A DNA stretch of 64,000 nucleotides from Thermodesulfobacteriota bacterium. GTDB taxonomy: Bacteria > Desulfobacterota > Desulfobacteria > Desulfobacterales > SURF-7. The stretch covers positions 64,001 to 128,000 of the forward strand of contig JBMORA010000012.1 of assembly GCA_049320885.1 (NCBI GenBank), written 5' to 3'. Shown piece by piece: positions 33,624 through 62,796 of this stretch. Below the pieces are notes generated by a model. It saw nothing but the letters and a program-made list of their open reading frames with translations, had not been told where the DNA came from and ran no database searches. Each line of letters begins with the position of its first letter. The stretch's first letter is position 1. The position numbers and the translations under genes were made by a program.

Positions 33624-35399
33624 TCATGGTGATCCGGAGAGGTGCGGCATGACTTCGAACAATCGATAGCACACCAATCCCAATCCATGCTGATTGCGAA
33701 AATCAAAAACCGGTTGCATGGACATCTTACGGCCAGGTGATATATGCTTGTTGAAATAGCTTTCCACCAGCCGGGTCACGGGAGTTTTTGAAGTTTTTTC
33801 AATATATTCGAACCAGATAGCAGCGGGATTGTCGATGCTCCAGCGGAGCAATTCATTACCGTTTTGCAGACCATGATGTCGTAATATCCGCAGATACCCC
33901 TTGGAATGGATCAGCCAACCGGCAGGCAACACCGGAATGGAGGTGAAATCCGCCACCTCCTTCAAGGGATGAACAGCTTCCTGCAATAAATTGCTGTTCG
34001 GGTCCAGGGGTATCAACAGCACGGTATCCAGGTGGGGCCGGTTCATCGCCACCATGCTCAGTTTCCTATCGATCTGTTCTTTTTCCGCTCTGCGGGCGAA
34101 TACATGCTGAAGAAGAGAGGCGGTTTTGGACCAGGTCAAGCCGGCCGCCGTGAGTGTCAGGGCGAGGGCAACGACGAGGAAAATTTCTGTCGGGTTCCGT
34201 TTTGATCCGCCGACAGGGTCTGGTTTTTCCAGACGGTCGAGAATGACAAAGAAGGTGCCCGCGACATAACAATAGAGCGGCATATATACCCGCGGAACGA
34301 AGCGATAATACATCAGGAACAGGGCGCCTGCAACCACGATGCCGATGGCCAGACCCTGGCGGAAAGGCTTCGTGATTGTTTGGCGCCTCAAGGAGGCAAG
34401 ATTTCGTATGAAAACGGCGGACAACGTGCAGAACAGAATGAGGGTGACGGTTTTGCTTCCCTGGAAATGCAGGGACATTCGCTGAGCGACCTGCCGAAAA
34501 AACGGGATTTGACCTGTGGGATTGTTTTCCTTTGTAAACAGGGAGATTGATGATGTATTGGACCGGTTGATGTCATGTAAAAACCAGTAATTTCGGAAAA
34601 GTATAAAATCTTCCATATCCCAGCCGGCTTTTGATATTGCTCGTAGCGTAAGGTCGCCATAGTATTCCCCCCTATCCGTATCATGGAAAATTCCCCGTAT
34701 ATTGCTGTATTGAAAAAAGAAACGGTTATCCTTTGAATATTGATGAAAGAGCAGCCAGAAAGAAAGAAGGAGGAGGAAGAAGAATCCTGCCCAGACGGGC
34801 AGGGTTTTTCGGAAAAAAGAAAGCCTTCCGACAATGACGACGGAGAAAACCAGTATTGATGCGAATTGCACAAGGTTCCAGCGCAGGGAAAAAGACATAA
34901 CCAGGGCGAGGGTCAATAAAAAAAGATACGTGCGTTCTTCGTGTATCGGGCAATTTTCGGTGAGGGCCCATTCCAACAGGCAAAGAAACACCGCGAATAA
35001 CAGCAGCAGGGAAGCGGATGTGAAACTGGCGAAAACAAAACAATGGAAAAAAACAATAAAAATAAACGGAGTGGCCGACAGGAAGGCGAACCGGTCATTG
35101 CTTCTGAGGAAAACGCCCAGAATAAGGGTGTAGCTTAGAAGGATACCGGAGTACAGATAGAAGCCATACCAGGGAAGACCCGGAACCGCGCGGTAGAGAC
35201 GGTGCAGCATGTGGCTGGTCACTGGATTGAGGAAAAAGCAGTCTTTCCCTGGTAAAAACCCGTTCAATTCAAGGACGATGGCGAAATCATCGTTGGATTC
35301 GTACCGGACCGGCAGGAAGCTGCCGATATTGATCATAAAGACGCTGACGCAGAGCAGGGCGATCCACAGGGAATTTCGCTTTATGGAATACGGTTGCAT
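33624..35399 (-). CDS. Polytopic membrane protein, putative GT-C-fold glycosyltransferase
   Basis: About 11 TMs with an acidic motif (YESNDD) in the first periplasmic loop, plus a C-terminal soluble domain. Confidence 0.55.
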   Translation of the reverse strand: MQPYSIKRNSLWIALLCVSVFMINIGSFLPVRYESNDDFAIVLELNGFLPGKDCFFLNPVTSHMLHRLYRAVPGLPWYGFYLYSGILLSYTLILGVFLRSNDRFAFLSATPFIFIVFFHCFVFASFTSASLLLLFAVFLCLLEWALTENCPIHEERTYLFLLTLALVMSFSLRWNLVQFASILVFSVVIVGRLSFFRKTLPVWAGFFFLLLLSFWLLFHQYSKDNRFFFQYSNIRGIFHDTDRGEYYGDLTLRAISKAGWDMEDFILFRNYWFLHDINRSNTSSISLFTKENNPTGQIPFFRQVAQRMSLHFQGSKTVTLILFCTLSAVFIRNLASLRRQTITKPFRQGLAIGIVVAGALFLMYYRFVPRVYMPLYCYVAGTFFVILDRLEKPDPVGGSKRNPTEIFLVVALALTLTAAGLTWSKTASLLQHVFARRAEKEQIDRKLSMVAMNRPHLDTVLLIPLDPNSNLLQEAVHPLKEVADFTSIPVLPAGWLIHSKGYLRILRHHGLQNGNELLRWSIDNPAAIWFEYIEKTSKTPVTRLVESYFNKHISPGRKMSMQPVFDFRNQHGLGLVCYRLFEVMPHLSGSP

Positions 35400-35557
35400 G
35401 GTATGGTTTCCAGGAGCTGAAACTCACTGCATGGTAACGGTTGTATGGGAGAGGTGATCGACAAGGTTCCAACAACAGTAAACTAAAGGTTGACGCAAAA
35501 ACATTGTTTGTAATATGGTTACGCGTTACTTTGCCAGTCTCACATAAGAGAACCGAT

Positions 35558-36511
35558 ATGACAAGAGAAAATATCGAAATATCCGTGGTCGTCCCGGTTT
35601 ACAACAGTTCCGCGACGTTGCGGGAACTGAACCGCCGTTTGATCCACACGTTGATCGAGCTGGTGGCGGATCGGTATGAGATCCTTTACATCAATGACGG
35701 CAGCCGGGATGATTCCTGGAGGATCCTGGGTGAATTGACGATGGAAAACGGGAACCTCACCGCCGTGAACCTGACCCGCAATTTCGGCCAGCATAACGCC
35801 ATCATGTGCGGTTTCAGCGAAGCCGCCGGAAACTATATCATCACCATCGACGACGACCTGCAGCTGCCGCCGGAGGAGATCGCGGCCCTGTACCGGGAAA
35901 TTCAGAACGGTCATGATATCGTCTATGGCCTTTATCGGCAGAAGAAGCATTCCGTATTCCGGAACCTGGGTTCCGAATTCGTCCAGTTCGTGTATATGCG
36001 GACCTTCGATACGGATATCCGGCTGACGTCCTTTCGAATCATCCGGAGGGAAATCATATCCAAGATCCTGTCCTATGAGAAAAGTTTCACGTTCATCGAC
36101 GGTCTGATTTCCTGGTACACGTCCAATATCGGCAAAGTCTATGTGGAACATCATGAACGCAAAATCGGAAAAAGCGGTTATTCCCTGAAGCGCCTGATCG
36201 TCCTGTCCCTGAACATGCTGACGAATTTCAGCATCGTTCCGGTTCAGATCGCCTCGCTCATCGGCATTCTGTTCTCCCTGACGGGTTTTCTGGCCGGATT
36301 TCTTTTTTTCTGCAAAAAGCTTTTTTTCGATGTGCCGGTTTCGGGTTTCACGGCACTGATCGTCACCGTCACCATCTTTTCCGGCGTACAGCTACTCACT
36401 CTGGGCATATTGGGGGAATACATCAGCCGGATTCATATCAACGTCAACAATCGCCCCCAGTACGCGGTGCGGGAAATTGCGGCATTGCATCGTAAACCCG
36501 AAGCCAGATGA
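35558..36511 (+). CDS. GT2 polyprenol-phosphate glycosyltransferase (ArnC/GtrB-like)
   Basis: SVVVPVYN, INDGSRD, RNFGQHNA, IDDDLQLPPE, two C-terminal TMs, GILGEYISRI..RPQY. Confidence 0.92.
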   Translation: MTRENIEISVVVPVYNSSATLRELNRRLIHTLIELVADRYEILYINDGSRDDSWRILGELTMENGNLTAVNLTRNFGQHNAIMCGFSEAAGNYIITIDDDLQLPPEEIAALYREIQNGHDIVYGLYRQKKHSVFRNLGSEFVQFVYMRTFDTDIRLTSFRIIRREIISKILSYEKSFTFIDGLISWYTSNIGKVYVEHHERKIGKSGYSLKRLIVLSLNMLTNFSIVPVQIASLIGILFSLTGFLAGFLFFCKKLFFDVPVSGFTALIVTVTIFSGVQLLTLGILGEYISRIHINVNNRPQYAVREIAALHRKPEAR

Positions 36512-37653
36512 TACCTGATACCCGTTTTGCATATGCCCCCCTCGAAAGTCGTCGATTCCAGCTGAACGCCTATCGCGGTTTTCTCAAGTCCATGGATGCG
36601 GACGCCATCCTGGCGGCGGTGCTGAAACATGAAATCGACCTCCTGATCATCCGTCTGCCGGCGGAAAAGCAATGCGAAATCGCCGTATTGAATGAACTCG
36701 GGATGCCTTTTATCATAGCAGACACCCTTGTCTGGTATCATGCGGATATCTCCGGTATTCAGCCGAAACCTTACCGGAACCCCGATCTGTCGTTTATCGA
36801 GTACACGTCGGATCATTTCGAGCTGTCCGATCGCATGGTGCAGGAAATATTCACCGGATATTGGAACAACTATTCGGCCAACCCGCTGCTGGAAGCGGAT
36901 TTGGTCGAAATCTACAGGGATTGGACCCGCAGTTACGCGACGGACCGGGCCAGGGGCAAGTTTTCGTGGCTGGTGGGAAGAGGCGACGACCTTCTCGGTC
37001 TGATCACCTGCCTGGTGCAGCAGAATGAGCTGGAGGTGGTCCTGAATGGAGTTCTGCCCAGGGAGGCGCGGAAGGGCGTCTATGGCGATATGATCCGCTT
37101 TATTCAAGGGTTTTGTCTGACCCACCGGATCGCCCGCATCCGGATTTCCACCCAGGCGAACAATTACGCGGTTCAGAAAGTGTGGGGACGGGAAGGGTTC
37201 CATCTGAAAAATGCCTTTGTGACGATTCATGTCAACAGCATGATGAAAGCGTCGCGGATACCGGGGAAGAGCTGGCGGGTCCGCATCGCGCCATATGGAA
37301 GTCCGGAATCTTTCGACATGGCGGGCATCGCAACCGCTGAAAAGGGTAAAATGACAATGGGGCGACAGGCCCTCCTGGGCTGGATCACAACCGGAGCGGC
37401 TCCGGTGTTTGTTCCCAGAGAAGGTGCCACGCTTTTGAAAAATGCGGTCCGGTATGTCAAGCCATTGAAGCCGGGAATGGATTACCGGGTTGACATCAAC
37501 CACCCCTATGTGAATCCGGCCGCCGGGGCGTATACGACCGTGTTGAAGGTATATGACGAAACGGGCGATATCTGTCTGTTTGCTTATTATGATTTCAGGG
37601 AACAAACGCAACCCGGAAAAACGGTTTGCGGACCTACGGAACTCTATCCATGA
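36508..37653 (+). CDS. GNAT-family acetyltransferase (WecD-like) with C-terminal extra domain
   Basis: GVLPREARKGVY acetyl-CoA loop, ISTQANNYAVQKVW..GF; C-terminus resembles a hot-dog fold. Confidence 0.65.
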   Translation: MIPDTRFAYAPLESRRFQLNAYRGFLKSMDADAILAAVLKHEIDLLIIRLPAEKQCEIAVLNELGMPFIIADTLVWYHADISGIQPKPYRNPDLSFIEYTSDHFELSDRMVQEIFTGYWNNYSANPLLEADLVEIYRDWTRSYATDRARGKFSWLVGRGDDLLGLITCLVQQNELEVVLNGVLPREARKGVYGDMIRFIQGFCLTHRIARIRISTQANNYAVQKVWGREGFHLKNAFVTIHVNSMMKASRIPGKSWRVRIAPYGSPESFDMAGIATAEKGKMTMGRQALLGWITTGAAPVFVPREGATLLKNAVRYVKPLKPGMDYRVDINHPYVNPAAGAYTTVLKVYDETGDICLFAYYDFREQTQPGKTVCGPTELYP

Positions 37654-38471
37654 CGAAAGCGGAAAAAATCCGGAAGATACTGGATTGGAGCCGGGCGCAT
37701 ACGGTCCAGAACAATGCCTACTGTTTTCTCCCCGGTGCCCATGACCGGCGCCGGACTTCCGGGGACGGGCTTTTGGGCAAGGTGCAAGACATGCTGAAGG
37801 TGAATGGCAGGCTGTATTATACCCTGCTCTCTCTCTTCGGGCCGGTCATGTTGTCGTCCGCGTATCGGGAAACCGCGAGGGCTTGTCTGGAAAAATACGG
37901 CGAAAATCATGTGATCATCAATCTGGGCAGCGGTCCAGCCTATTTTTTTGGGCGCAAGGATATCATCAATATCGATGTCTTCGCTCTGGATGAGGTGGAT
38001 ATTGTCGCCGATGCCGCCAATTTGCCGCTTGCCGATGGGTCCGTGGATTTTATCATCAGCATCGCCATGCTGGAACATGTGGTCAATCCGCGTCAGGTGG
38101 TTCAGGAAATGCATCGGATTCTGAAAAAAGACGGTGAGGTGTTTGCCTATGTTCCCTTTGTGCAACCGTATCATGCAGCACCGTACGATTTTTCCCGCTG
38201 GAATCACCAGGGGATCAAAAAACTTTTCTCCGGTTTCGATGTCAGCCGGATTTTTATCGGCAGCGGTCCCACGTCCGGAATGCTGTATGTGCTGGAGGAA
38301 TGGCTGGCGATCCTACTGTCCTTCGGCAGTAAATTCCTGCACGATATGTGGTTTTTGCTGTTGATGATGTTGTTGTTTCCGGTGAAATTCCTGGATGTGA
38401 TCCTGAACAGGTCCGGGCTGGCTGCCAACGCCGCCAGCGGTTTCGGTATCGTCGCCAGAAAGGGTGGATGA
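37650..38471 (+). CDS. Class I SAM-dependent methyltransferase
   Basis: INLGSG, DAANLP..DGSVD, LEHV, HAAPYDF. Confidence 0.88.
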   Translation: MTKAEKIRKILDWSRAHTVQNNAYCFLPGAHDRRRTSGDGLLGKVQDMLKVNGRLYYTLLSLFGPVMLSSAYRETARACLEKYGENHVIINLGSGPAYFFGRKDIINIDVFALDEVDIVADAANLPLADGSVDFIISIAMLEHVVNPRQVVQEMHRILKKDGEVFAYVPFVQPYHAAPYDFSRWNHQGIKKLFSGFDVSRIFIGSGPTSGMLYVLEEWLAILLSFGSKFLHDMWFLLLMMLLFPVKFLDVILNRSGLAANAASGFGIVARKGG

Positions 38472-38474
38472 CCT

Positions 38475-39923
38475 ATGAATGCGTCTATGAATGGCCCGAT
38501 GCAGCAGTATCAGCAAAGGAGAATCGCGCATTGGAACCGGGTGGTTTCCAAAAAAGAGAAGACCGACCGCTGGAGCTCATGCTACCACGGATTATTGCAT
38601 CATTATTACCGGTTGATGGTGCCTCGCGGCTTGAAAATCCTGGAAATCGGTTGCGGCATGGGGGATCTTCTATCTGCCCTGGAGCCGAGCCATGGAGTGG
38701 GGATCGATTTCGCGGAGGAAATGCTTGTCCGCGCCCGGCAGCGGCATCCACGGCTGACGTTTATCCATGCAGATGCCCATGATCTCCCGTTACGGGAGCT
38801 ATTTGACGTCATTATCCTGTCCGACCTGGTGAACGATCTCTGGGATGTTCAGACTGTTTTGGAGAAAGTCCGCAACCTGTGTCATCCCGGCACCCGCGTT
38901 ATTACAAATTTTTTTAATAACATCTGGAGAATACCTCTTGGAGTCGTGAAACGGCTGGGGCTGGGGGCCGATGTATTGGAACAGAACTGGTTTTCGCCCC
39001 ATGACGTTTCCAATCTCCTGGAGCTGGCAGGTTTTGAGGTCATCGACGTTTCGCCCCGGGTACTCCTGCCGCTGCGCATCCGGTTTCTGGAAACCCTGGC
39101 GAACCGGTATCTGGTCAACCTGATCCCTTTCAACTGGTTCGGTCTGACCAACATCATGATCGCCCGGCCCATTTCCGCCAGAGAGGAAATATTGGCTTGT
39201 CGCGGCAAGACCGTCTCGGTGATTGTTGCGGCCCGGAATGAGGCCGGTAATATCGAGAATATCCTCAAACGCGTGCCGGAACTTGGAGATAAAACCGAAA
39301 TTGTGTTTGTGGAAGGACATTCCAGCGATCAGACCTACGAGACCATTGAGGACGCAATCAAACGCCACCCGGAAAAACACGCTTGTCTGTTCCGCCAGAC
39401 CGGAAAAGGCAAGGGGGACGCCGTGCGGCTCGGTTTTGAGAAAGCCTCGGGGGATATTCTCATGATACTGGATGCGGACTTGACTGTTCCTCCGGAGGAT
39501 TTGCCGCGTTTTGTCCAGGCCATGACATCCGGCAAGGGCGACTTTATCAATGGCGTGCGCCTGGTGTATCCCATGGAAGACAAGGCCATGCGTTTTCTCA
39601 ATATTATTGGAAACAAGTTTTTCAGTCTGGCCTTCACCTGGTTGCTGGGACAGCCCATCAAGGACACGTTGTGCGGCACAAAGGTGTTGTGGAAGAAGGA
39701 TTACGATCTGATTGTTTCCAATCGCAGCTATTTTGGCGAGTTCGATCCATTCGGCGACTTTGACCTGTTGTTCGGCGCGGCCAAATTGAACCTGAAAATT
39801 GCAGAAGTGCCCATCCGCTACCGGGAACGAGTCTACGGCACCACCAACATCAGCCGGTTCTCCCATGGCTGGCTGCTCCTGAAAATGGTGCTGTTCGCCG
39901 CAAAAAGGATCAAATTTATATAA
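38475..39923 (+). CDS. Bifunctional methyltransferase-like / GT2 glycosyltransferase
   Basis: N-terminal LEIGCGMG; C-terminal VIVAARNE, VEGHSSD, GKGDA, LDADL, DTLCGTK, DPFGDFDLL. Confidence 0.88.
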   Translation: MNASMNGPMQQYQQRRIAHWNRVVSKKEKTDRWSSCYHGLLHHYYRLMVPRGLKILEIGCGMGDLLSALEPSHGVGIDFAEEMLVRARQRHPRLTFIHADAHDLPLRELFDVIILSDLVNDLWDVQTVLEKVRNLCHPGTRVITNFFNNIWRIPLGVVKRLGLGADVLEQNWFSPHDVSNLLELAGFEVIDVSPRVLLPLRIRFLETLANRYLVNLIPFNWFGLTNIMIARPISAREEILACRGKTVSVIVAARNEAGNIENILKRVPELGDKTEIVFVEGHSSDQTYETIEDAIKRHPEKHACLFRQTGKGKGDAVRLGFEKASGDILMILDADLTVPPEDLPRFVQAMTSGKGDFINGVRLVYPMEDKAMRFLNIIGNKFFSLAFTWLLGQPIKDTLCGTKVLWKKDYDLIVSNRSYFGEFDPFGDFDLLFGAAKLNLKIAEVPIRYRERVYGTTNISRFSHGWLLLKMVLFAAKRIKFI

Positions 39924-39956: not shown

Positions 39957-41384
39957 ATGTTGTTCAATTCATGGGTTTTTCTTTTGTTTCTCGCTGTTGT
40001 GTTGCCTGTTTATTATTCGCTCAACACACGGTTCCAGAATATTTTCCTGATCGTTGCGAGTTATTTTTTCTACGGGTACTGGGATTACCGGTTCCTGTCG
40101 CTTATCGTCATTTCCACTACCGTCAACTATACCATTGCCCTTGGAATCCAGACAGCTGCCGGAAAGAAGAAGAAAAAGCTGTTGATCATCGGAATCATCC
40201 TCAATCTCGGCTTCCTTGGGTTTTTCAAATATTATCATTTTTTCATCGACAGTCTTTCGGATGTTTTCCAAATCCTGGGTTTTTCTCCGGTGACTTCCAC
40301 TTTGAAGATCATTCTGCCCCTGGGAATCAGCTTCTATACCTTTCAGGCCATGGCCTACATCATCGATGTCTACCTGGGAAGGCAGACCGCCACAAAGGAC
40401 AAGATTTCGTTTGCGTTGTTTATCTGTTACTTCCCGTTGCTCCTCGCGGGTCCCATTGAAAGGGCCGGACATCTTCTCCCCATGCTGCAGTCGAAAAGAG
40501 TCGTCAGGCGGGAGGATGTCACTGCCGGCATTCAGCTGATCCTGATCGGGCTGGTGAAAAAAATCGCCATCGCGGATGCGGTGGCGCCGTTTGTCAACCG
40601 CCTGTACCAGGATTGCAACGGCCACATGAGTCTGGACCTCTTATGCGGCGTTTATCTGTTTGCGATCCAGATTTACGGCGATTTTTCCGGCTATAGCGAT
40701 ATCGCCCGGGGGGTCAGCAAACTGCTGGGCATCGATCTGATCATGAATTTCCGGCAACCGTATTTCTCCAAAAATATAGTGGAATTCTGGCGGCGTTGGC
40801 ATATTTCACTGTCCGGATGGCTCCGCGACTATCTTTATATTCCCATGGGCGGAAACCGAAAAGGGAAATGGAAGACCTACCGGAATCTCATGATTACCAT
40901 GCTCCTGGGGGGCTTGTGGCATGGCGCCTCCTGGGTGTTCGTCATCTGGGGCGGATTGCATGGCGCCTATCTTGCCCTCCATAGGATATTCAAGGAAATA
41001 ACGAAGAAAGAGATTCGGGAAAACAGCCGATCCTGGAAAACAGCCGTAATTACCTGGTTCAGTGTTTTTGTTACCTTTCATCTGACGAGTGTCGCCTGGG
41101 TTTTTTTCCGTTCTCCTGATTTGCGCACCGCCGGTGTTTATCTGTTGAGGCTCGCCAGTCCGGCGAATTGGGGCTATGGCGACGCCTCCCTGGTGCAGGC
41201 GACGGTTTTTTATCTTCTGTTCACCTTTTTGCTTGACCTCCCGCAATATCTGGCGGATCGTGAGTTGCTTTTGACAGCCGGTACTCATTGGATTTGGCGC
41301 GGTCTGACGTATGCGATGCTGATGGTGATGATTTCCTTTATCGGGGAAAGCTATGTCCAGCCGTTCATCTATTTTCAGTTTTGA
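39957..41384 (+). CDS. MBOAT O-acyltransferase (AlgI/PatA-like)
   Basis: LPLGISFYTF, AGPIER, DFSGYSD, FWRRWHISL, GLWHGA, C-terminal FIYFQF. Confidence 0.95.
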   Translation: MLFNSWVFLLFLAVVLPVYYSLNTRFQNIFLIVASYFFYGYWDYRFLSLIVISTTVNYTIALGIQTAAGKKKKKLLIIGIILNLGFLGFFKYYHFFIDSLSDVFQILGFSPVTSTLKIILPLGISFYTFQAMAYIIDVYLGRQTATKDKISFALFICYFPLLLAGPIERAGHLLPMLQSKRVVRREDVTAGIQLILIGLVKKIAIADAVAPFVNRLYQDCNGHMSLDLLCGVYLFAIQIYGDFSGYSDIARGVSKLLGIDLIMNFRQPYFSKNIVEFWRRWHISLSGWLRDYLYIPMGGNRKGKWKTYRNLMITMLLGGLWHGASWVFVIWGGLHGAYLALHRIFKEITKKEIRENSRSWKTAVITWFSVFVTFHLTSVAWVFFRSPDLRTAGVYLLRLASPANWGYGDASLVQATVFYLLFTFLLDLPQYLADRELLLTAGTHWIWRGLTYAMLMVMISFIGESYVQPFIYFQF

Positions 41385-43399: not shown

Positions 43400-43433
43400 C
43401 TTCATGGGCTGGCAATCGTATGCGATTGATATC

Positions 43434-44147
43434 ATGAATGAAAAATACCAATATGCCGGCGGGGAATTGGCGCTTTTTGCCAAAGCCATTCATTGGAAAA
43501 AATATGTTTCCAGGGTGATAGGCCCGTATATCGCAGGCGACGTCCTGGAGGTTGGTGCAGGAATAGGAGAAAGCACCAGGCTTTTGCATGCATGGGACCA
43601 TCGCAGCTGGCTCTGCGTTGAGCCGGATTCTGGCCTTTTTCAGGAGTTACGGAAAACCGTTTCCGATTTACCGGATAATCATACGGTTACTTGTATGCAA
43701 GGGTTTCTGGCCGATCTCGGGACCAAGCAACTGTTTGACACCATACTATACATCGATGTGCTAGAGCATATCGAAAAAGATGCTTCGGAAATGGAAGCGG
43801 TATCCAGGTATTTGCGACCCGGTGGGCATGTCATCATTCTTGCGCCTGCGCATCAATGTCTGTTTACTCCATTCGATGCGGCGATAGGGCATTTCCGACG
43901 ATACGGCAAATCCTCATTGCAACGAATCATACCGGAAAACATCCGAATCCTCCGGATGATATATCTGGATAGCGTCGGACTGGCTGCCAGTTTGGCAAAC
44001 AGGTTTCTATTGAAGCAGGCCATGCCGACCTTGGGGCAGATCATGACATGGGACCGGATGCTGGTGCCGGTGTCAAGAATCATCGACCCTTTATTCCGAT
44101 ATAGACTCGGCAAGACGATTGTGGGTGTCGGGAAGAAAACAGTATAA
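43434..44147 (+). CDS. Class I SAM-dependent methyltransferase
   Basis: VLEVGAGIG, IDVLEHI, PAHQ.LF..FD..IGHFRRY. Confidence 0.88.
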   Translation: MNEKYQYAGGELALFAKAIHWKKYVSRVIGPYIAGDVLEVGAGIGESTRLLHAWDHRSWLCVEPDSGLFQELRKTVSDLPDNHTVTCMQGFLADLGTKQLFDTILYIDVLEHIEKDASEMEAVSRYLRPGGHVIILAPAHQCLFTPFDAAIGHFRRYGKSSLQRIIPENIRILRMIYLDSVGLAASLANRFLLKQAMPTLGQIMTWDRMLVPVSRIIDPLFRYRLGKTIVGVGKKTV

Positions 44148-54346: not shown

Positions 54347-55342
54347 TCAATCCGTGTATATTGTTTTCAGGATGTCGTTTCCCACTTCCGTTGTGTAATG
54401 AATATGTTCATAGTAGTTATGAACAGTCTCCGTGTATTGGTTCGTTCCACTATAATCGAAAACGTTTTTATCGCCAAATATTTCGTTTAACACGGACAGG
54501 TCGTTTTTATTCAGGGCTTTTTGATCATATAAAGGACTGATAACAATTTTGTATTTTGTCTGATGCTTTTTAAAAATTCGATGGATGTCTTTCAGGATAT
54601 GGATTGCTTCCCGATCGATAAGGTTTCCCGCTACAATTTTATCAGAAGTTGTTCTGGGGTAGAAAAATTGTCGTTTTTTCCGGTAGTATTCAGAAGGGTT
54701 GTTTTTTTGCTCGCTTTCTTGCTCGATCAGGTAGAAGTCATTGGTTACGGTGTCAATTTCAATTGGATAATTGATTAAGAGATGACCCATATAGGGTCTA
54801 TATTGTCTATTGATTTTATAGTCAAGGAATCGAAGAAAAAAGAAATTGGTAAAATATGCTTTGACATAGACCAGGTGGAATGAAAGTCGGGACGATTCAG
54901 TTAACCGTGGATGTTTCACGAATAAGTGGCCTGCTGGAAGCGCTGAAAAAGAATAATCCGTGTCCAAAATGAGTAAGACATTTTGAAAGTCATCTTTCAG
55001 TTCATCGATCAATTTTATCTTGGCATGGATACCATCCAAATTTTCGCAGGAAGCGGCAAAAACAAACGGTTTTGCAGTTCTTGGAAGGTATTTTTTCCAT
55101 TCATCGGTGCGGAAGGCTCCCGTGCGGGAGCTTCCAAAAATAAAAGCATTATACTTATGCAATACCCTGTTTTTTAGAAAAATTTCGGTGGAAATATAAT
55201 CGCGGTTCAGCGTTACCGCAGTATTTTTATAGTAGTCGGTGTATGGATAGAGAACCCGGAAAGGATCGAATATTATATAGGTGGCAAATATGGCGGCAAG
55301 CGGTAGAAAGAATAGAATTGTGCGTTTGATGAATCGTTTCAT
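54347..55342 (-). CDS. MBOAT-partner periplasmic SGNH/DltD-like protein
   Basis: N-terminal TM ending DPF, IFGSSR, C-terminal YYEHIHY (ExxH); TAATG coupling with the MBOAT. Confidence 0.72.
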   Translation of the reverse strand: MKRFIKRTILFFLPLAAIFATYIIFDPFRVLYPYTDYYKNTAVTLNRDYISTEIFLKNRVLHKYNAFIFGSSRTGAFRTDEWKKYLPRTAKPFVFAASCENLDGIHAKIKLIDELKDDFQNVLLILDTDYSFSALPAGHLFVKHPRLTESSRLSFHLVYVKAYFTNFFFLRFLDYKINRQYRPYMGHLLINYPIEIDTVTNDFYLIEQESEQKNNPSEYYRKKRQFFYPRTTSDKIVAGNLIDREAIHILKDIHRIFKKHQTKYKIVISPLYDQKALNKNDLSVLNEIFGDKNVFDYSGTNQYTETVHNYYEHIHYTTEVGNDILKTIYTD

Positions 55343-56778
55343 TAAAATTGAAAATAAATAAATGACTGTTGCTTGCCGGAGAATTCCAGCAATATCGTGA
55401 TAGCGCCGTAATACAGCGCCCATCGAAGCGAAGGACTCTTGATATTATCAAAATGGAATAAATGCTCTTTTTCACGCTGGAGCCATTCCAGCAGAACAAA
55501 GGCGGCAAGGAGGATCAGAAAAAATTCCACATATTCTTCCGGAATTGTATAGAAAAGGCTTGGAGAAAGAATGCCTTTGACGTAGGAGACGGCCTGGCCG
55601 ATGTTTTCCGCCCTGAAAAATATCCAGGCCAGGCACGTGATGAAAAATGTCATCCCTACCTGTAACAATTCCTTGAAGGAAGGAAACAGGCATCCGGCGG
55701 CGACTGTGTCCATATTCGCCCGGTTGGTATTTGTGAGCAGCAACGGCAAAAAACAGCAGGCATTGATCAGACCCCACAGGATAAAAGTCCAGTTGGCTCC
55801 ATGCCAGAAGCCGCTTACCAGGAAGATGATAAACACATTCCGGATTTGCAGCCATTGGTTTCCACGGCTGCCGCCCAGGGGAATATAGACATAATCCCGG
55901 AACCAGGAGGTCAGGGAAATATGCCAGCGACGCCAGAATTCCGCCATATCCCTTGAAAAATACGGGAACGCGAAATTTTTCTTGACGTTGAACCCCAGAA
56001 GGCCGGCCGTGCCGATGGAGATGTCCGAATACCCGGAAAAATCGCCGTAAATCTGAAAGGTGAAATATACGGCTCCCAGCAACAGGGTGCTGCCGGAAAG
56101 ATTCTGGTGATGGGTAAAGATATAATCGGCGTAAACAGCGCAGTTGTCGGCAATGACGACTTTCTTCAAAAGACCGCCGAGAATCTGGCGCATACCGTCC
56201 ACTGCCTGGTTATAGTTGAAAACACGCTTGCTTTCAAATTGGCATAGAAAATCACGCGCTTTTTCTATGGGACCGGCGAGAATTTGGGGGAAAAAGGCGA
56301 TGTAGGTGAAATACGCGACGACATCCTTGGTGGGCGATAATTTGCCACGGTAGATGTCGACTGTATAGCTGATGGTTTTAAATGTATAAAAACTGATGCC
56401 AATCGGCAATACGATATTCAATGTCCGGATATCCAGGCGTTTGCCGAATAGTAAAAAGGAGTCGATGAAGCTGATGATGAAAAAATTGCAATATTTGAAA
56501 AAAAACAGGATCCCCAGATTAACGGTGAGACTCGCCAGTAATAATCGCTTCCGTTGCACCGGATCAGTCCGGTTGCCCATGAGCGTGCCGATCCAGAAAT
56601 CCACGCCCGAACTGATGATGATCAGGATCAGAAAACGCCAGTTCCACCATCCATAAAAAAAATAACTCGCTGCCAACAGCAGCGAGTTTTGGAACCGCGG
56701 ATGACGGGCGGCGGTAAGCCAGTACAGAATGAAGACAATCGGCAGAAAGATGGCGAATTCAATTGAATTGAACAGCAT
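55342..56778 (-). CDS. MBOAT O-acyltransferase (AlgI/PatA-like)
   Basis: LPIGISFYTF, AGPIE, DFSGYSD, FWRRWHISL, GFWHGA, C-terminal FIYFQF. Confidence 0.95.
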   Translation of the reverse strand: MLFNSIEFAIFLPIVFILYWLTAARHPRFQNSLLLAASYFFYGWWNWRFLILIIISSGVDFWIGTLMGNRTDPVQRKRLLLASLTVNLGILFFFKYCNFFIISFIDSFLLFGKRLDIRTLNIVLPIGISFYTFKTISYTVDIYRGKLSPTKDVVAYFTYIAFFPQILAGPIEKARDFLCQFESKRVFNYNQAVDGMRQILGGLLKKVVIADNCAVYADYIFTHHQNLSGSTLLLGAVYFTFQIYGDFSGYSDISIGTAGLLGFNVKKNFAFPYFSRDMAEFWRRWHISLTSWFRDYVYIPLGGSRGNQWLQIRNVFIIFLVSGFWHGANWTFILWGLINACCFLPLLLTNTNRANMDTVAAGCLFPSFKELLQVGMTFFITCLAWIFFRAENIGQAVSYVKGILSPSLFYTIPEEYVEFFLILLAAFVLLEWLQREKEHLFHFDNIKSPSLRWALYYGAITILLEFSGKQQSFIYFQF

Positions 56779-56844: not shown

Positions 56845-58368
56845 TTAGGGAGTGATTTGAACCTCATAGCGATACAGCCAAGGGTCTTTTCCTTTCAGCA
56901 GCATGATCGGCAGATGAAAGGCGGTATCCGATGGAAAATAGACGGCCAGACCAGTTGGCAGTACATAAAATCGTTGGTTCAATTCCTTCCCGTTGATCAC
57001 GATAAACCAGGAACCTTCTTGTTGAGCTGAAAAGGCGAAGTACTTTTCGTTGGGGCTGAAGCCCATGTGCCGAACGCCGTCATAGGGTCCCAAAAGATTA
57101 TCATCGATGGCGACGAATTTTTTATCCCCCTTTTCAACGGTATAGGCGACCCGTTTCCCGGAATTGCTGAAAACCGGTTTCCCGATTCCCTCGAAGGGTT
57201 TTCCCTCCTTACCATCCAGGACAAAAACCCGATTCTCATCCTCCTGTTTCCCGACATAATACAATCGGGAAGTGCCGAGAATAAAATCCGGTCCGATGAT
57301 GTTTACGTATTGCTTTGGATGCGGTTTGCCGTTTTGGACTACAAAACTGTTTCCGCTTTCCACCGCCCGGCAGGCAACATGCGCGGAATCCTGGCTGAAA
57401 ACGATGGTGTCTATGGAATCATATTCGAACAGGGTCTGGCCGTTGGAAATGAGCCGTTCTCTTCCATCGAAACGCGCGCTGTAGGCATAGCTTTTGGAAT
57501 CCGGACTGAAGAGGAATTGAATGGCCAGGGATGCGTCCGGCCCCTTGACCCCGTCAACCACCAGATTCCATTTTTCACCGGAATTGATGCCATAGGCAAA
57601 ACGGGATGAATCATTGCTGAAAGTCGTCATGCCGATGAAATCTCCGGTGATGGGCATTTCCACGCCGTCCATGACCACGAAAACGTTTTTGCCGGTTTTG
57701 GCGACATAAGACACATGGCTGGAATCCGGACTATACAGAATGGAACCGGCCAGGGCGTATTTTTTTTGGGTTTTTAATTTGTTCTCCACGACAAACCAAC
57801 TGTCGTTATCATAAACGCTGTAGGCGAACCGCTTGGAATCCGGGCTGAATACAAGATCTTCGATGTGGTTGTATTTGGGACCGATTTTATGATTGATGAC
57901 AATCACAGCGGCTTTTTGTTGTTTGCCGATGTAGGCGAAATGCTTTCCATCCGGACTGAACATGAATTTCGCTACATTATCGAATGCCGGTCCTTTCTGG
58001 TTATCCACGATTACATACCACTTCTTCCCGTCATAAGCGCTGTAGGCGGCGCGACTCCCAGTTGAATTGAAAACAGGCGTCCCCTTGGCGATTTTAACCC
58101 ATACATCGGTGTCCGGCTTGCCGTTGAAGCAGGCGAACATGCCCTTGTTGTTCTTGGCGACATAGGCGATGTTGCGGCCATCCGGAGTTATGGCCAGTGA
58201 TGCAGGATACACCTGGATTTGTTCATCCTGTTTTCCAAAGAAGACGATTTTTTCAGCGTAATTTTCCGCAACCGCTGGTGGAATCGGGCATACAAAGGAA
58301 GCCGAACATGTCGCGAGCAACAACAAAATCCACAGCCGATGGCGTTCTGCTTTGATTGTCTTTTTCAT
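56845..58368 (-). CDS. Secreted beta-propeller repeat protein (TolB/PD40-like repeats)
   Basis: About 11 repeats of the type VVxDGxxGxxYDxIxxxxFSPDSKxxAY; signal peptide; start at ATG 58368 with GGGAG RBS. Confidence 0.8.
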   Translation of the reverse strand: MKKTIKAERHRLWILLLLATCSASFVCPIPPAVAENYAEKIVFFGKQDEQIQVYPASLAITPDGRNIAYVAKNNKGMFACFNGKPDTDVWVKIAKGTPVFNSTGSRAAYSAYDGKKWYVIVDNQKGPAFDNVAKFMFSPDGKHFAYIGKQQKAAVIVINHKIGPKYNHIEDLVFSPDSKRFAYSVYDNDSWFVVENKLKTQKKYALAGSILYSPDSSHVSYVAKTGKNVFVVMDGVEMPITGDFIGMTTFSNDSSRFAYGINSGEKWNLVVDGVKGPDASLAIQFLFSPDSKSYAYSARFDGRERLISNGQTLFEYDSIDTIVFSQDSAHVACRAVESGNSFVVQNGKPHPKQYVNIIGPDFILGTSRLYYVGKQEDENRVFVLDGKEGKPFEGIGKPVFSNSGKRVAYTVEKGDKKFVAIDDNLLGPYDGVRHMGFSPNEKYFAFSAQQEGSWFIVINGKELNQRFYVLPTGLAVYFPSDTAFHLPIMLLKGKDPWLYRYEVQITP

Positions 58369-58419
58369 CTGAAAACTCCCGATGGATGTTGCTGAATTAA
58401 TAAATAGAAAAACCAATCC

Positions 58420-58461
58420 TGAAAATAGCATTTACATAATGAATCCACGCTCTGATGTCAA
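58420..58461 (-). promoter_or_regulatory. Sigma70 promoter with palindromic box TGAAAATAGCATTTACA over the -10
   Basis: Minus strand TTGACA-N17-TATGTA; box at 58420-58436. Confidence 0.55.
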
Positions 58462-58581: not shown

Positions 58582-58947
58582 CTACAGTCCGCCAAGCCCG
58601 AATGTGGAACCGGTCGCAACGGTCTGAGCGTCATTGATGGCCTGCTGCACCGCCTGGGGAGGACCAGCGAATTGGGCAATGGTCGCGGCGCCGCCGAGAT
58701 ATAACTGCAAATCGCCGGCTGCCTGCCCGGTTGGTTCGATTGCATTGGTATAGTGGAACATCGTGTCCCCGATGGGGCCGGTTGCTACGCCCGCGTCGGA
58801 TGCATTTTGAGCGTAAATGTTCTCCATCTCCACATCCGACATTTGTTCCAGGGCGAAGGCGGGGGTGGATAGGAACATCAGGCCGCCGCACAATAAAATG
58901 GTCAACAACCTATGGAACTTCCGGCAGTTTTTTATCCATCTGGTCAT
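58582..58947 (-). CDS. Small secreted protein with conserved-looking post-signal motif (ALEQMSDVEMENIYAQ)
   Basis: Sec signal ending PAFA; AAGGA RBS; Gly/Ala/Gln/Thr-rich remainder ending FGLGGL. Confidence 0.7.
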   Translation of the reverse strand: MTRWIKNCRKFHRLLTILLCGGLMFLSTPAFALEQMSDVEMENIYAQNASDAGVATGPIGDTMFHYTNAIEPTGQAAGDLQLYLGGAATIAQFAGPPQAVQQAINDAQTVATGSTFGLGGL

Positions 58948-58979
58948 ATGACGTTTCCTTGCTGTTCCCTGGGCCCAAA

Positions 58980-59064
58980 TGAAAACAACGTTAAGATGGT
59001 TCTGGAGATTAAATACCTCTAACGCTTGTAAACGACGTTTACATAGTCCATGCTTGTTTGTCAA
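58980..59064 (-). promoter_or_regulatory. Sigma70 promoter with palindrome TGTAAACGACGTTTACA over the -10 and a second degenerate box
   Basis: Minus strand TTGACA-N17-TAAACG; boxes at 59027-59043 (perfect 7-3-7) and 58980-58996. Confidence 0.65.
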
Positions 59065-59128
59065 GAAAAAATTTTCTTTACAATCAATTTTTCTCACAGG
59101 GGTGGAACAGCGGGATCAACTGAATTTA

Positions 59129-60889
59129 TCATGGTGCGGATGGGCGGCATTGCTTGCGGACAAGATTCAGGATGGCGTGTGCCTTTTGCGAATCCGGGTC
59201 GATCCGAAGAGCAAACTGAATATTGTCTATGGATTTTCGGCACTGCCGGAGATGAAAATATAAAATTCCCAGATTGGTATACGCGTCCGTATAATCCGGC
59301 CGTATGCGAATGGCCTGGATGTAATGGGCTTCCGCTTCTTCCGTCCGGCCATTATCCGCTAGCACGTTCGCCAGATTGTTGTGTGCGGAAGCCATGGCGG
59401 GTTGCATTTCCAGGGCTGTATGGAAGGAGCGGATGGCGTCGTCCAGTTTGCCGGAACGCGCCAGGGCGATTCCGAGGTTGTTATGCGCTTCGAAGTAATT
59501 CGGCCGGATCCGGATGGACGCCCGGTAATGATCGATTGCGGCGGAAATATCACCCTGTTTTGCCAGATAGGCTCCCAAAAGATTATGAACGAAATAATTG
59601 CCTTCCGTCACGGAAAGAGCGTGCTCGAACAAGGTCCGGCTGTTTTTCCAGTGGGGCACTTGCAGATATGTGATTGCGGCCAGAATGAAGATGCCGGTAG
59701 CCGCCATTGCCGCCTTGATGACCGAATTTTTCAATAAACCGGAAACGCCCCACACAACGGCAATGAACAGACCGATCAGCGGGATATAGGCGAAACGATC
59801 ATTGATGGCCCCCCAAACGCCGGAATAGGTCAGGCCGATGGCCGGCACAAAAGTGCCAAGAAACCATAACCAGCCGACGATCAGGTAGGGCCTTTTCTTT
59901 ATTTGGTGAACCGAAAGCAGGGTCACCAGAAAGATCAGCATAAAGGAACCCAGCAGTTGCCATGGGGGGGGGATCTCCGTTGGATACGGATAGTGGATGG
60001 AAAAATGCCGTGGCCATATGGCCTTGCTTATGTATTTTATATAGGAAACCAGCGCATTCGCCACCCGCAGGGTCAGGGGCGCCTGGTCTCCGGAAACCAG
60101 ATGGCCAAGCCGCTTCAGTGACATGAGGGTGAGCAGAATCGACAGCATGGAGAGAGCGAACAGGGGAATTTTTTCTTTAACAAGGCGAAAAACCGTCGGC
60201 AGGTAAGAGGAAGCAGCTGATTGGTCCAGTTGTATTACAGGGGAGAGAGGGTATGGTTTCAGGCGGCCGAGGGGCCAATAATCCAGCAGCAGCAACAAGA
60301 ACGGAAGCGTAATCAACAAGGGTTTCGCCATGCTGCCACATATAAAACATACCAGAATAACAAGATATCTCTTTTTTGTCGGCGTCCTGACATAGAAGGC
60401 GTAGGATAGCAGGGTCAGCATCCAGAAAAAGGCGCTGAGGACATTTTTTCGCTCGGCAATCCAGGCGACGGAATCGACATTGATGGGATGAACGGAAAAC
60501 AACAAAGCCGCGGCCAGGCTCCTGAAAGGTGAGCCGGTGGTTTCCAGTAGAAAGAAAAACAGCAGGAGACCATTGACGATATGGATGGAAAGGCTGGTGA
60601 GATGGTGCCAACCGGGGTTCAGGCCGAAAAGGCTGCAATCGATCATATGGGAGATCCAGGCCAGCGGAAGCCAGTAATCCGCATTGTTGAAACGGAAGGC
60701 CCAGGAAATGTTTTCAATCGTCACGCCTTGCCGGATACGGGAATTTTCCGTCACATAGGCATTATCGTCCAAATCTATGAATTCGTTTTTGCTTATATGC
60801 CAGTACGTTGTGGCGGGCAGAAACACCAGCAGGCAGATCAACAGAATGGTTCTGCGGATTTGAAATGCGGTTTTCATTGCTTTTGTCAT
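59129..60889 (-). CDS. TMTC-like membrane glycosyltransferase with C-terminal TPRs
   Basis: FIDLDDNAYVTEN (DD motif), Y.LPL..IS, HPINVDSVAWIAERK, DRFAY, HWKNS..LF, followed by about 4-5 TPRs. Confidence 0.82.
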   Translation of the reverse strand: MTKAMKTAFQIRRTILLICLLVFLPATTYWHISKNEFIDLDDNAYVTENSRIRQGVTIENISWAFRFNNADYWLPLAWISHMIDCSLFGLNPGWHHLTSLSIHIVNGLLLFFFLLETTGSPFRSLAAALLFSVHPINVDSVAWIAERKNVLSAFFWMLTLLSYAFYVRTPTKKRYLVILVCFICGSMAKPLLITLPFLLLLLDYWPLGRLKPYPLSPVIQLDQSAASSYLPTVFRLVKEKIPLFALSMLSILLTLMSLKRLGHLVSGDQAPLTLRVANALVSYIKYISKAIWPRHFSIHYPYPTEIPPPWQLLGSFMLIFLVTLLSVHQIKKRPYLIVGWLWFLGTFVPAIGLTYSGVWGAINDRFAYIPLIGLFIAVVWGVSGLLKNSVIKAAMAATGIFILAAITYLQVPHWKNSRTLFEHALSVTEGNYFVHNLLGAYLAKQGDISAAIDHYRASIRIRPNYFEAHNNLGIALARSGKLDDAIRSFHTALEMQPAMASAHNNLANVLADNGRTEEAEAHYIQAIRIRPDYTDAYTNLGILYFHLRQCRKSIDNIQFALRIDPDSQKAHAILNLVRKQCRPSAP

Positions 60890-60908
60890 GTAGATCGGTA
60901 AGAAGTGT

Positions 60909-60946
60909 TTGACAAGCTGTTTTTTTTTATGTAAACAACGTTTATG
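60909..60946 (+). promoter_or_regulatory. Sigma70 promoter with palindromic box TGTAAACAACGTTTATG over the -10
   Basis: TTGACA-N17-TAAACA, the same geometry as the 59027-59064 promoter; lies in the divergent intergenic region. Confidence 0.65.
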
Positions 60947-61008
60947 TTTGGGAATGCTGATATTGTGAGTATGTGCCTTTTTTTTAACCACAGGGAAAGC
61001 ACCTGGTT

Positions 61009-62796
61009 ATGATGGCGTTGATCAGGCGTACGATATATATTGGGGTGGTCATGGGGCTGCTGTTTTTTTCCTGCAGCAGCGACGATTCTCCGGAAACAAG
61101 CCAACCGGCGGATTTCAGCGGCACGGGCCGGATCGCCTTCAGCGGCAGATGGGTTACATCGGGAGTCGACTACAATTTCGTTGATGCCGTGGTCTATGAT
61201 CAGGATAATCATCTGCTCCGCGAAAAGCTCCAGATCATGAAATGGCAGGAATCGGCAATCGATGAGATTCCGGCCGGTAAAAACCGGACCCTGGTTATCT
61301 ATGGCAAGGGCGGCACCGGACAAATCATCTTCCGCAGTGTCCGAAAGGGACTGAGCGTTGCCACCGGCAAGACCACCACCGTGGCCTCCATGGTGGAGAC
61401 CTCTTTCATTCCCAAATCGATTGCTCCGGTCACCGGTACGGAGTTCAATGTCAGGGCCTTTACCCTGGAATGGGAACCGGTGGCGGGAGCCGTCCAATAC
61501 CGGGTAGCGGTGAGCGGGCTCTTCGACACGTACACCGAGGAAACGACATATTCCTACGAAGAAACGGAACCGGCGGCAGCGCCGGTTTCCAATGGAACCA
61601 ACTCGGCGGATATCTATCTCTTCCCTGATACTGGGCAATTGAAGCGATACGACTTACAATCGAAATTCAGTGAAGACAACCCGAATCTCCTATGGTCCGG
61701 CGAGGACAGCTGCTACAACAAGGCGGAACGGCAACAAAGCTATTCCATGCTGGATATCTACGGAAATCCTTGCGGTGGCAGGGCCAGTTACATTTGGAAC
61801 GTGTGGGCCATTGACGAATTCGGCAAGGCGAGTCAGAACACCACGGAAAGTTTCGAGGTGGTGTGCGCCATGTTGAAGGACAATGTCACCGGCCTGGTAT
61901 GGCAGATGAAAACCGATGACGATTCCATACATGACAAACACAATCGCTATACATGGCCCCAAGCCCAGGCTTGTATTGAGCAATTGAACTCCACGAAGTT
62001 CGGCGGCAGCATCCAGCCGCTGGAATGGCGTCTGCCGACCATCAAGGATCTGGCGACGATCGTGAACTGCCATGTTTTCGAACCGCCGACGGTCATCGCC
62101 ACATATTTCCGGAATATGATGTCATATCCGTATTGGTCATCAACCGATTATCAAAGCACTGGCGGAACGGACGCCTGGATATTGGATTTTGAGAGCGGTG
62201 ATACCGGTCACCATGCCAAGGAGGTTCCGATGAGGGAGCCGGAAATCTATCTGATGGCGGTAAGCGGCGCTCCTCAACTCGGAGATCCGTTTGTCAAGAA
62301 TCAGGACGGCACCATCACCGATAAGATCAGCGGCCTGACGTGGATGCAGCCTCCGCTGCCGCAACCCATGGAATGGGCGGCCGCTCTGGCTTTCTGCGAA
62401 TATCTGAAGTTATGGGGCAATGGTGATGGTGACTACTATTGGTCGACGATGATTGGCGGAAAAACCATGATTTTCGCGGAAGGCAAATGGCAGGAGCGCG
62501 ACAAGGAATTTTTTCTGCCAGGGGATTTTTCCGTTGTTAACGATGATTGGCGTCTCCCCGACCGGAATGAATTGATGTCGGTGGTGGATTACAACCGAAC
62601 GGATCCGGCCGTGGATACAAACTATTTCTCCGGCGTGACCGCATCAGACTATTGGAGTTCGACCACCGTTTCCTTTACGGACTATACGTCCAATGCCTGG
62701 GTCGTGGATTTCCGGGACGGCAGGATCACCAGTAGCGATAAGGACGATTCCAACAACCATTGCCTCGTATTGCCGGTGCGGGATACCAAACAGTAA
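61009..62796 (+). CDS. DUF1566 (Lcl C-terminal) double-domain lipoprotein
   Basis: Lipobox FFSC; PDTGQ; two repeats of D..TGL.W / WRLP..EL / YWSST / AW..DF..G. Confidence 0.88.
   Translation: MMALIRRTIYIGVVMGLLFFSCSSDDSPETSQPADFSGTGRIAFSGRWVTSGVDYNFVDAVVYDQDNHLLREKLQIMKWQESAIDEIPAGKNRTLVIYGKGGTGQIIFRSVRKGLSVATGKTTTVASMVETSFIPKSIAPVTGTEFNVRAFTLEWEPVAGAVQYRVAVSGLFDTYTEETTYSYEETEPAAAPVSNGTNSADIYLFPDTGQLKRYDLQSKFSEDNPNLLWSGEDSCYNKAERQQSYSMLDIYGNPCGGRASYIWNVWAIDEFGKASQNTTESFEVVCAMLKDNVTGLVWQMKTDDDSIHDKHNRYTWPQAQACIEQLNSTKFGGSIQPLEWRLPTIKDLATIVNCHVFEPPTVIATYFRNMMSYPYWSSTDYQSTGGTDAWILDFESGDTGHHAKEVPMREPEIYLMAVSGAPQLGDPFVKNQDGTITDKISGLTWMQPPLPQPMEWAAALAFCEYLKLWGNGDGDYYWSTMIGGKTMIFAEGKWQERDKEFFLPGDFSVVNDDWRLPDRNELMSVVDYNRTDPAVDTNYFSGVTASDYWSSTTVSFTDYTSNAWVVDFRDGRITSSDKDDSNNHCLVLPVRDTKQ

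Follow-up and report, generated by a model that had tools for sequence, protein, structure and literature searches.

The stretch considered here comprises 64,000 nucleotides of a Thermodesulfobacteriota bacterium (assembly GCA_049320885.1, contig JBMORA010000012.1, positions 64,001 to 128,000; hereafter the window), and our subject is a 29-kb block at window positions 33624-62796 that appears to encode machinery for glycosylation outside the cytoplasm. The source genome is designated G000, the window being G000:C12:64001-128000; G001 and G002 are its congeners, and C and L numbers denote contigs and examined loci. According to the list of open reading frames (ORFs), 22 intact ORFs tile the block and the coding strand switches five times (Table 1). 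The GC content of the block genes is 0.38-0.54, compared with approximately 0.6 on the left flank, where the border is a CusCBA-type efflux operon; to the right lie a MoxR/vWA/Bat operon and then a type IV pilus cluster. Positions 28000-64000 are covered by contigs of run X1, possibly the source, in overlapping pieces with zero differences, and the MT3/B1 and B1/AT3a joints are bridged by short identical pieces in run X2. Promoter-like sites are at chance level (21 seen, 22.7 expected).

Table 1. Genes of the block (window coordinates).
Feature	Position	Strand	Remarks
A, family A GT-C-fold transferase	33624..35399	-	591 aa; NDD after the first transmembrane segment (TM1); no Pfam/NCBIfam model; paralog after GT2-GtrA on contig C31
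GT2a, ArnC/GtrB-like polyprenyl-phosphate sugar synthase	35441..36511	+	Start probably 35558, giving 317 aa as in congeners
GNAT acetyltransferase, WecD/RffC-like	36508..37653	+	Adjoins WecE in G001 and G002
MT1, class I SAM methyltransferase	37626..38471	+	~50% orthologs directly upstream of family B in 4/32 loci
MT-GT2, methyltransferase-GT2 fusion	38475..39923	+	GT2 half DPMS/AglJ-like, without C-terminal TMs; orthologs often beside TMTC-like genes
MBOAT1, AlgI/DltB-like	39957..41384	+	Not at this position in G001 or G002
SGNH1, SGNH-like partner 1	41353..42441	+	GSS and DxxH motifs; Pfam SGNH only at E 0.02
GT2c, distant ArnC/GtrB/PgfS-like GT2	42425..43399	+	Two C-terminal TMs
MT3, class I SAM methyltransferase	43404..44147	+	Closes the conserved donor core
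B1, family B GT-C	44161..46122	-	FNFxDEG; in congeners MT3 precedes a different membrane protein of 525-530 aa
AT3a, acyltransferase-3	46107..47249	-	
C, GT87-related GT-C	47278..48606	-	No match itself; 4/18 aligned members match PF09594
AT3b, acyltransferase-3	48770..49864	+	
MT4, class I SAM methyltransferase	49865..50554	+	46-64% orthologs adjoin family B genes in L023 and L026
B2, family B GT-C	50622..52508	-	
B3, family B GT-C	52469..54334	-	AlphaFold model, pLDDT 92; nearest folds Pmt1/Pmt4/ArnT/AglB
SGNH2, SGNH-like partner 2	54347..55423	-	GSS motif only; no Pfam match
MBOAT2, AlgI/DltB-like	55342..56778	-	
Exported beta-propeller	56845..58431	-	PD40 repeats; a 28% paralog lies in the MoxR/vWA/Bat operon on the right
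Small exported protein	58582..59097	-	Probably 121 aa from 58947; DUF6160-like N-terminus, Pfam DUF6160 unmatched
T, bacterial TMTC-like GT-C with C-terminal TPRs	59129..60991	-	One of ~11 paralogs in G000
Lcl_C (DUF1566) lipoprotein	61009..62796	+	Conserved between T and the MoxR/Bat operon

Three GT2 domains (at 35441, 38475 and 42425), two of them with C-terminal hydrophobic helices, four S-adenosylmethionine (SAM) methyltransferase domains (37626, 38475, 43404 and 49865), two AT3 acyltransferases and one GNAT were confirmed in the block, as had been noted in an original prediction made from the letters of the DNA. The two MBOAT+SGNH pairs listed there stand in part: each MBOAT adjoins a protein with one TM and a GSS motif, but the SGNH assignment itself is weak, SGNH2 having no family. 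None of Wzx, Wzy, Wzz, Wzm/Wzt, GT4 and GtrA occurs among the 22 ORFs, the gaps between the genes are too small to hold one, and no flippase of the sort that lies within the locus in three-component GtrABC-type systems was found among these ORFs. The absence of Wzx, Wzy, Wzz, Wzm/Wzt and GT4 noted in the prediction holds for the block, which is not a Wzx/Wzy or ABC-transporter polysaccharide cluster; the prediction that it is not a classical O-antigen or exopolysaccharide (EPS) cluster is supported in this respect. The description of the locus as lacking polymer-export machinery is true of the window but not of the system, since the block corresponds to a detached part of a larger island in G002.

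The six polytopic proteins A, B1, B2, B3, C and T, with 8-12 hydropathy peaks each, all carry the acidic motif after TM1 that had been noted, and this motif is conserved in their alignments (B, D53/E54 in 70/71 rows; A, D37 in 109/111; C, D67 in 18/18; T, DD in 16/17); as judged from sequences and models, however, they are members of only four GT-C families, namely A, B (B1, B2 and B3), C and T. Structure models were made for A and B3, and B1 and B2 were assigned through the 38-48% identity that the three B proteins share. The B3 model (pLDDT 92) gave 17 Foldseek matches at E<=0.001, and the 16 listed are all GT-C (AglB, STT3, ArnT and AftA); in a wide structure search its top 18 rows were GT-C or PIG-U, the best being Pmt1 (Z 15.7, root mean square deviation (rmsd) 5.1 Å, 388 aligned). 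The A model (pLDDT 95) gave zero Foldseek matches at E<=0.001, yet its first 15 rows were all GT-C; in the wide search its top 20 rows were GT-C or PIG-U, led by DPY19 (Z 13.6, rmsd 6.1 Å, 430 aligned), and the next unrelated row stood at Z 5.1. ArnT is among the top folds for both A and B, and no WaaL, Wzy or SEDS (GT-CB) chain is among the 50 rows listed for them, a listing that does not exclude such a fold. In family C, 4/18 aligned members match PF09594 (GT87; best E 2e-11), and PF09594 appears in the precomputed annotation of 6/22 homologues, although C itself has no match and a profile search with family C against solved structures found nothing. The earlier view that the membrane proteins are GT-Cs of the lipid-phosphate-monosaccharide type is supported by the models of A and B3, whose top folds are of the Pmt/ArnT/DPY19 type, by the GT87 alignment of C and by the PMT_2 and TMTC clusters of T. 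The fold alone is insufficient to fix the donor, because related GT-Cs are split between the Pmt, ArnT and Emb families, which use lipid-monophosphate monosaccharides, and the STT3/AglB family, which uses lipid-diphosphate oligosaccharides (PMC10920833).

A, B and C themselves have zero Pfam or NCBIfam matches, and among the 62 of 150 A relatives that were scanned only scattered matches appeared (DUF6056, DUF6057, DUF6541 and TgpA_N). Families A and B are thus GT-Cs missed by profile libraries. Profile comparisons among A, B, C and T restricted to the membrane domains were no better than reversed controls. A strong profile match between B and T was rejected, since it was driven by tetratricopeptide repeats (TPRs), which occur in 24/71 family B members, and was lost when only the membrane domains were compared. 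A recent triplication of B is likewise unsupported, the window copies forming one clade in 0% of 200 bootstrap trees built from 26 rows (3 window and 23 locus proteins, with the remaining homologues left out).

On the donor side, all three GT2s resemble polyprenyl-phosphate sugar synthases, as had been predicted, in that ArnC, GtrB and DPMS are their best matches in the PDB: GT2a matches ArnC (E 9e-55) and GtrB sll0501 (E 4e-46), GT2c matches ArnC and GtrB distantly (E ~1e-8), and the GT2 half of the MT-GT2 fusion matches DPMS best (E 7e-16). GT2a does not reach the cut-off of 529 of NCBIfam NF007986 (ArnC), scoring 210.5 bits, and among the NCBIfam matches of GT2c and GT2a, PgfS ranks first or second, below its cut-off. 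For the GNAT, NCBIfam gives WecD/RffC as the best match, at E 1.2e-5 and far short of the cut-off. G002 has, between its MT1 and GNAT genes, a WecE that passes the cut-off, and an 85% ortholog occupies the same place in G001; the G000 block lacks WecE, and one WecE above cut-off is encoded on C1 of this genome. The position of a WecD-like GNAT beside WecE in both congeners implies that a nucleotide-sugar module, likely for Fuc4NAc, is present, and the original view that no nucleotide-sugar enzyme is involved is not supported as it stood. Because GT2a is ArnC/GtrB-like, the GNAT WecD-like and WecE adjacent in the congeners, the left end is likeliest to be read as a putative route from dTDP-Fuc4NAc through undecaprenyl phosphate (Und-P)-Fuc4NAc to transferase A. 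No ArnA/ArnD/ArnEF-like gene is found among the 22 ORFs. A paralog of A (A') follows DegT-GT2-GtrA in all three congeners, which is the classic three-component order; GtrA is located on C31 and C62 in G000 and ~3 kb from A in G001 and G002. In addition, LPG_synthase_TM proteins, which may be flippases, adjoin family B in eight loci (L017, L018, L022, L024, L030-L032 and L034), and G000 has one on C1.

At the right end of the block, T consists of a GT-C membrane domain followed by TPRs and has the DD motif (M1), as in TMTC/GT105; its Atlas neighbours are PMT_2 clusters (0.98) and a TMTC_DUF1736 cluster (0.93), and it keeps the Arg/Lys of the TMTC motifs M3, M4 and M7. The small ORF at 58582 has a DUF6160-similar N-terminal motif and an Atlas lead at 0.82; a metagenome scan yielded no further copies of its product. 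The beta-propeller (window:56845-58431) has a 28% paralog at G000:C12:128873-130483, within the MoxR/DUF58/vWA/BatD operon, which suggests that the T-small-propeller unit belongs with that operon. Further along the same contig (G000:C12:150337-152420), at the contig end, a type IV pilin-like gene and a TMTC-like gene belonging to the KE-motif subfamily are convergent, and this pair recurs in G002. A literature search found no function, donor or acceptor for bacterial TMTC-like proteins, and for the Fil pilus nothing on point was found among the matches listed.

In G002, the block genes form the first part of a contiguous island of ~135 kb (C30, ~105-240 kb), which has the type IV pilus cluster as one boundary and a Fil/DUF6160 fibre cluster as the other. 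The island begins with a TMTC-like gene and a pilin, the pilus and Bat operons, Lcl-T-small-propeller, MBOAT2/SGNH2-AT3a-C and a variable stretch; it continues with MT3-GT2c-MT-GT2-MT1-WecE-GNAT-GT2a-A and a DegT-GT2-GtrA-A'-TMTC array. Wzm/Wzt with nucleoside diphosphate (NDP)-sugar, GT2 and GT4 genes comes next, further TMTC-like genes follow, and the island closes with four DUF6160 genes accompanied by FilB-, FilC- and FilD-like genes, the last three all below NCBIfam cut-offs. Wzm/Wzt lies 24 kb, and GtrA 3 kb, from A. The genes of this island are spread over C12, C31, C23 and C57 in G000, and on C85 of G001 the GtrA/TMTC array is joined to the donor core. Donor-core gene order is kept in 3/3 congeners; at this site neither G001 nor G002 was found to carry B1-B3, MBOAT1/SGNH1, AT3b or MT4, and the pilus-linked T unit is kept also in Desulfocicer. 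The 29 kb thus comprise three layers: a donor core that is conserved, transferase/acylase cassettes that can be exchanged, and the pilus-linked T-small-propeller-Lcl unit as a separate element. In place of the B1 of G000, the congeners have after MT3 a membrane protein of 525-530 aa (L051:13685-15277 in G002, L068:7667-9244 in G001), without Pfam match and with a weak Agl23-like NCBIfam match in G002, which is a candidate for another unnamed GT-C.

Family A, unnamed and large with 3252 representatives at E<=0.001, was found in only 3/201 genomes of the order, all of this genus. Family B is patchy, occurring in 2/41 relatives and 7/401 phylum genomes (4 of these strong), with 32 loci in the genome collection and 72 homologue matches in a database search, and TMTC-like genes are found in 29/41 relatives. 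Around the 32 B loci, a GtrB-like GT2 is present in 17, a related methyltransferase in 14, a TMTC-like membrane domain in 12 and an MT-GT2 fusion in 6; nucleotide-sugar enzymes are frequent nearby, and the 117 neighbour proteins scanned include one weak Wzx-like match. Orthologs of MT1, MT4, MT-GT2 and MBOAT1/SGNH1 recur beside family B in other genomes. For the MT-GT2 orthologs in 14 other genomes, a TMTC-like gene lies within ~1 kb in 6/14 and within 13 kb in 8/14, while TMTC is on other contigs in 4 and without match in 2; the fusion is a candidate donor synthase for TMTC-like proteins. Loci of this general kind recur in relatives, and they are common in the lineage.

Taken together, we consider it very probable that the block operates by the transfer of lipid-linked monosaccharides through GT-C enzymes. 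The prediction is that the three GT2s charge polyprenyl phosphate with single sugars, which the four GT-C families then transfer in the periplasm. GT2a would receive dTDP-Fuc4NAc made by WecE, encoded elsewhere in G000, together with the WecD-like GNAT, and A is its likely transferase; homology and gene order suggest that the donors modified by the methyltransferases are those of the MT-GT2 fusion and GT2c, and a GtrA-type flippase encoded elsewhere would flip the lipid-linked sugars. T and the TMTC-like paralogs may add the first sugar to exported proteins gripped by their TPRs, A, B and C may add further residues to the protein-linked glycan, and AT3 and the MBOAT/SGNH pairs may O-acylate the product; the candidate targets would be the subunits of the type IV pilus and the Fil/DUF6160 fibre that bound the island in G002. 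The block as a whole would then be a strain-variable donor and transferase cassette for the periplasmic transfer of single, likely methylated or N-acetylated sugars, most likely onto surface-fibre glycoproteins, a reading that we hold to be about evenly poised between right and wrong. The wider proposal that Desulfobacterales and Syntrophales build branched, methylated and acylated surface-fibre glycans wholly in the periplasm, started by TMTC-like proteins and extended by A and B, with cassette exchange varying the fibre coat between strains, is a tentative one that we regard as rather unlikely.

That a glycoprotein is the acceptor for most of the block is, in our judgement, a question on which the scales are level. 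A link to fibres is suggested by DUF6160, which is present in 20/21 B-carrying genomes but in 12/41 relatives and 20/401 phylum genomes, and which lies within ~41 kb of B in 7/21 genomes, where chance would give at most ~1.4 (these and the Wzx proximity tests covered 21 B-carrying genomes, that is, 21 of the 32 loci and mostly the longer ones). All 12 relatives carrying DUF6160 also have TMTC-like genes, within 15 kb in 5 of them (one DUF6160 match being below cut-off). Several observations weigh against protein-linked fibres as the destination. TMTC-like genes occur in 17/29 relatives without a DUF6160 match, genome counts treat kin as independent, and many contigs are short. The Wzx control is also enriched, lying within ~41 kb of B in 5/21 genomes (one below cut-off), so that closeness may only mark large surface islands. 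T lacks SHKSYRP (M2) and the Glu of KE(T/Q)xxT (M4) of TMTC, reading YWLP and KP instead (KE is present in 4/12 aligned TMTC-like rows of G000), and PF08409 (DUF1736) has no match over cut-off anywhere in G000, T included. The small ORF matches neither PF19657 nor NCBIfam FilA, its product contains ~10% Ser/Thr, and the exported proteins of the window, with 10-17%, are not Ser/Thr-rich. In G001, T-small-propeller-Lcl has remained next to the Bat/pilus locus on C110, where unrelated genes adjoin it, and is thus separable from the donor block; for this reason the secreted proteins at the right end, originally proposed as possible targets, are not supported as the natural substrates of the whole block, and pilus and Fil/DUF6160 fibre subunits are plausibly the better protein candidates. 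In both G001 and G002 the TMTC/DUF6160 cluster has a Wzm/Wzt and GT2/GT4 cluster attached to it, and in G001 Wzm/Wzt with family C lies beside the TMTC/DUF6160 cluster on C78. Furthermore, PimE/Aft-type relatives of GT87, like the AT3 and MBOAT/SGNH families, have glycolipids and polysaccharides as their substrates.

In an alternative that is possible but falls short of probable, A, B and C decorate an O-antigen or EPS built and exported by Wzm/Wzt or Wzx/Wzy elsewhere, in the style of GtrABC serotype conversion, and T belongs to the pilus locus as a separate enzyme directed at proteins. Such a role would suit the four acyltransferase systems of the block and the cassette exchange between congeners, which resembles serotype variation; three-component systems have been described as decorating polysaccharides (PMC11127046), a Wzm/Wzt cluster with GT2/GT4 and NDP-sugar genes is placed relative to A and C as given above, and in G000 there are four matches each to Wzx and Wzy_C, all on other contigs, and one Wzm/Wzt pair. 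However, among the 12 B-carrying genomes with a Wzt_C match none has it on the contig of B, just the single weak Wzx-like match was seen among the scanned neighbours of the B loci, and in G001 the TMTC array is joined to the donor core, with no Wzm/Wzt-like gene recognized in the 60 kb read. The ties of MT-GT2 to TMTC-like genes and the TPRs in a third of the B members also speak for a protein, and TPR fusions and TMTC linkage suggest macromolecular acceptors in general. They thereby count against the quite improbable case of a lipid acceptor, either lipid A/core, by ArnT-like amino-sugar addition, or a membrane glycolipid, as with PimE. For it, GT2a resembles ArnC most closely and has an amino-sugar module as its partner, the top folds of A and B include ArnT, and C is GT87-related; on the other hand, GT2a scores 210 against the ArnC cut-off of 529, and ArnA/ArnD/ArnEF-like genes are absent from the 22 ORFs, as noted above. 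It is also very unlikely that unrelated cassettes have simply gathered in the 29 kb, some of them idle because their partners are missing, without a single pathway: the five strand changes, the lack of WecE and of a local flippase, the genes missing from this site in G001 and G002 and the failure of the three B copies to form one clade would fit this case, but all 22 frames are intact, donor-core order is kept, and orthologs of MT1, MT4, MT-GT2 and MBOAT1/SGNH1 recur beside family B elsewhere.

Compared with known systems, the block, correctly read as a case of extracytoplasmic glycosylation by GT-Cs, is neither self-contained nor categorically new; it brings two unnamed GT-C families and a putative link between donor synthesis, TMTC-like proteins and fibres. 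The three-component GtrA/GtrB/Gtr* systems, including the GT136 system of Citrobacter, share with it a polyprenyl-phosphate sugar synthase, a flippase, a GT-C and strain-variable cassettes, and more elaborate versions with several GT-Cs have already been noted (PMC11127046; their chemistry is also treated in PMC13390465). By contrast, the block has three donor synthases, six GT-Cs of four families, methyl- and acyltransferases and TPR-bearing members, and no flippase of its own. Pseudomonas aeruginosa TfpW is similarly a periplasmic transferase that provides a type IV pilin glycan from a lipid-linked monosaccharide with a GtrA-like component; as far as the two can be compared by description, TfpW is one enzyme for one sugar (D-Araf, made through DprE1/E2), whereas the block has several GT-C families and GT2-made donors (bioRxiv 10.1101/2020.04.19.049825). 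In streptococci, a GT2 makes an Und-P-sugar and GT-Cs put the sugar on exported proteins (GtrB/PgtC2 and PgfS/PgfM1/PgfM2), but these are YfhO-family GT-Cs of Gram-positive bacteria with Ser/Thr-rich disordered acceptors, unlike the exported proteins of the window (PMC12041528). T shares the GT-C and TPR architecture, the DD motif and the M3/M4/M7 Arg/Lys with the animal O-mannosyltransferases TMTC1-4 (GT105) and differs from them in the missing SHKSYRP, KE(T/Q) and PF08409; a deltaproteobacterial TMTC homologue is named in the same source, in which prokaryotic homologues are uncharacterised (PMC7801869). In Haloferax volcanii, AglD/AglR/AglS with AglP likewise give a sugar its own lipid carrier, which is flipped, and the sugar is added outside to a protein-linked glycan, with a methyltransferase involved; this archaeal N-glycan is begun by AglB from a lipid-linked oligosaccharide, whereas the block has no AglB/PglB-type sequence match (PMC3871713). 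The locus thus offers a WecE/WecD/ArnC-like route to lipid-linked Fuc4NAc together with named candidate targets (pilin and DUF6160/Fil subunits); if the acceptor is only an O-antigen, it is an enlarged serotype-conversion locus of modest importance.

Some further features of these genomes were observed. In G000, C57:28283-44667 (L055 and L056 in G002) contains a Fil-type fibre cluster with four DUF6160-like genes, a 2192-aa exported protein, a C39 peptidase, and SPOR-FilC-like and FilD-like genes; ahead of the cluster stand four TMTC-like genes and an MFS/spermidine-synthase/TPR fusion of 1126 aa. A lone DUF6160 gene at C29:43622-44311 is closely like the first gene of this cluster. At G000:C38:83120-89962 (L075), two PMT_2 matches lie beside DprE1- and DprE2-like genes (below cut-off), likely a separate three-component system for a pentofuranose. 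The CusCBA-type heavy-metal efflux operon (window:25311-33578, GC ~0.62), with two outer-membrane factor genes and a small His/Met-rich protein, directly abuts gene A in G000; in G001 and G002 an acetyltransferase and the DegT-GT2-GtrA block follow A in its place. Three B12-binding radical SAM genes (window:168-2246, 14833-16368 and 21075-23015) lie in the left half of the window, apart from the glycosylation block.

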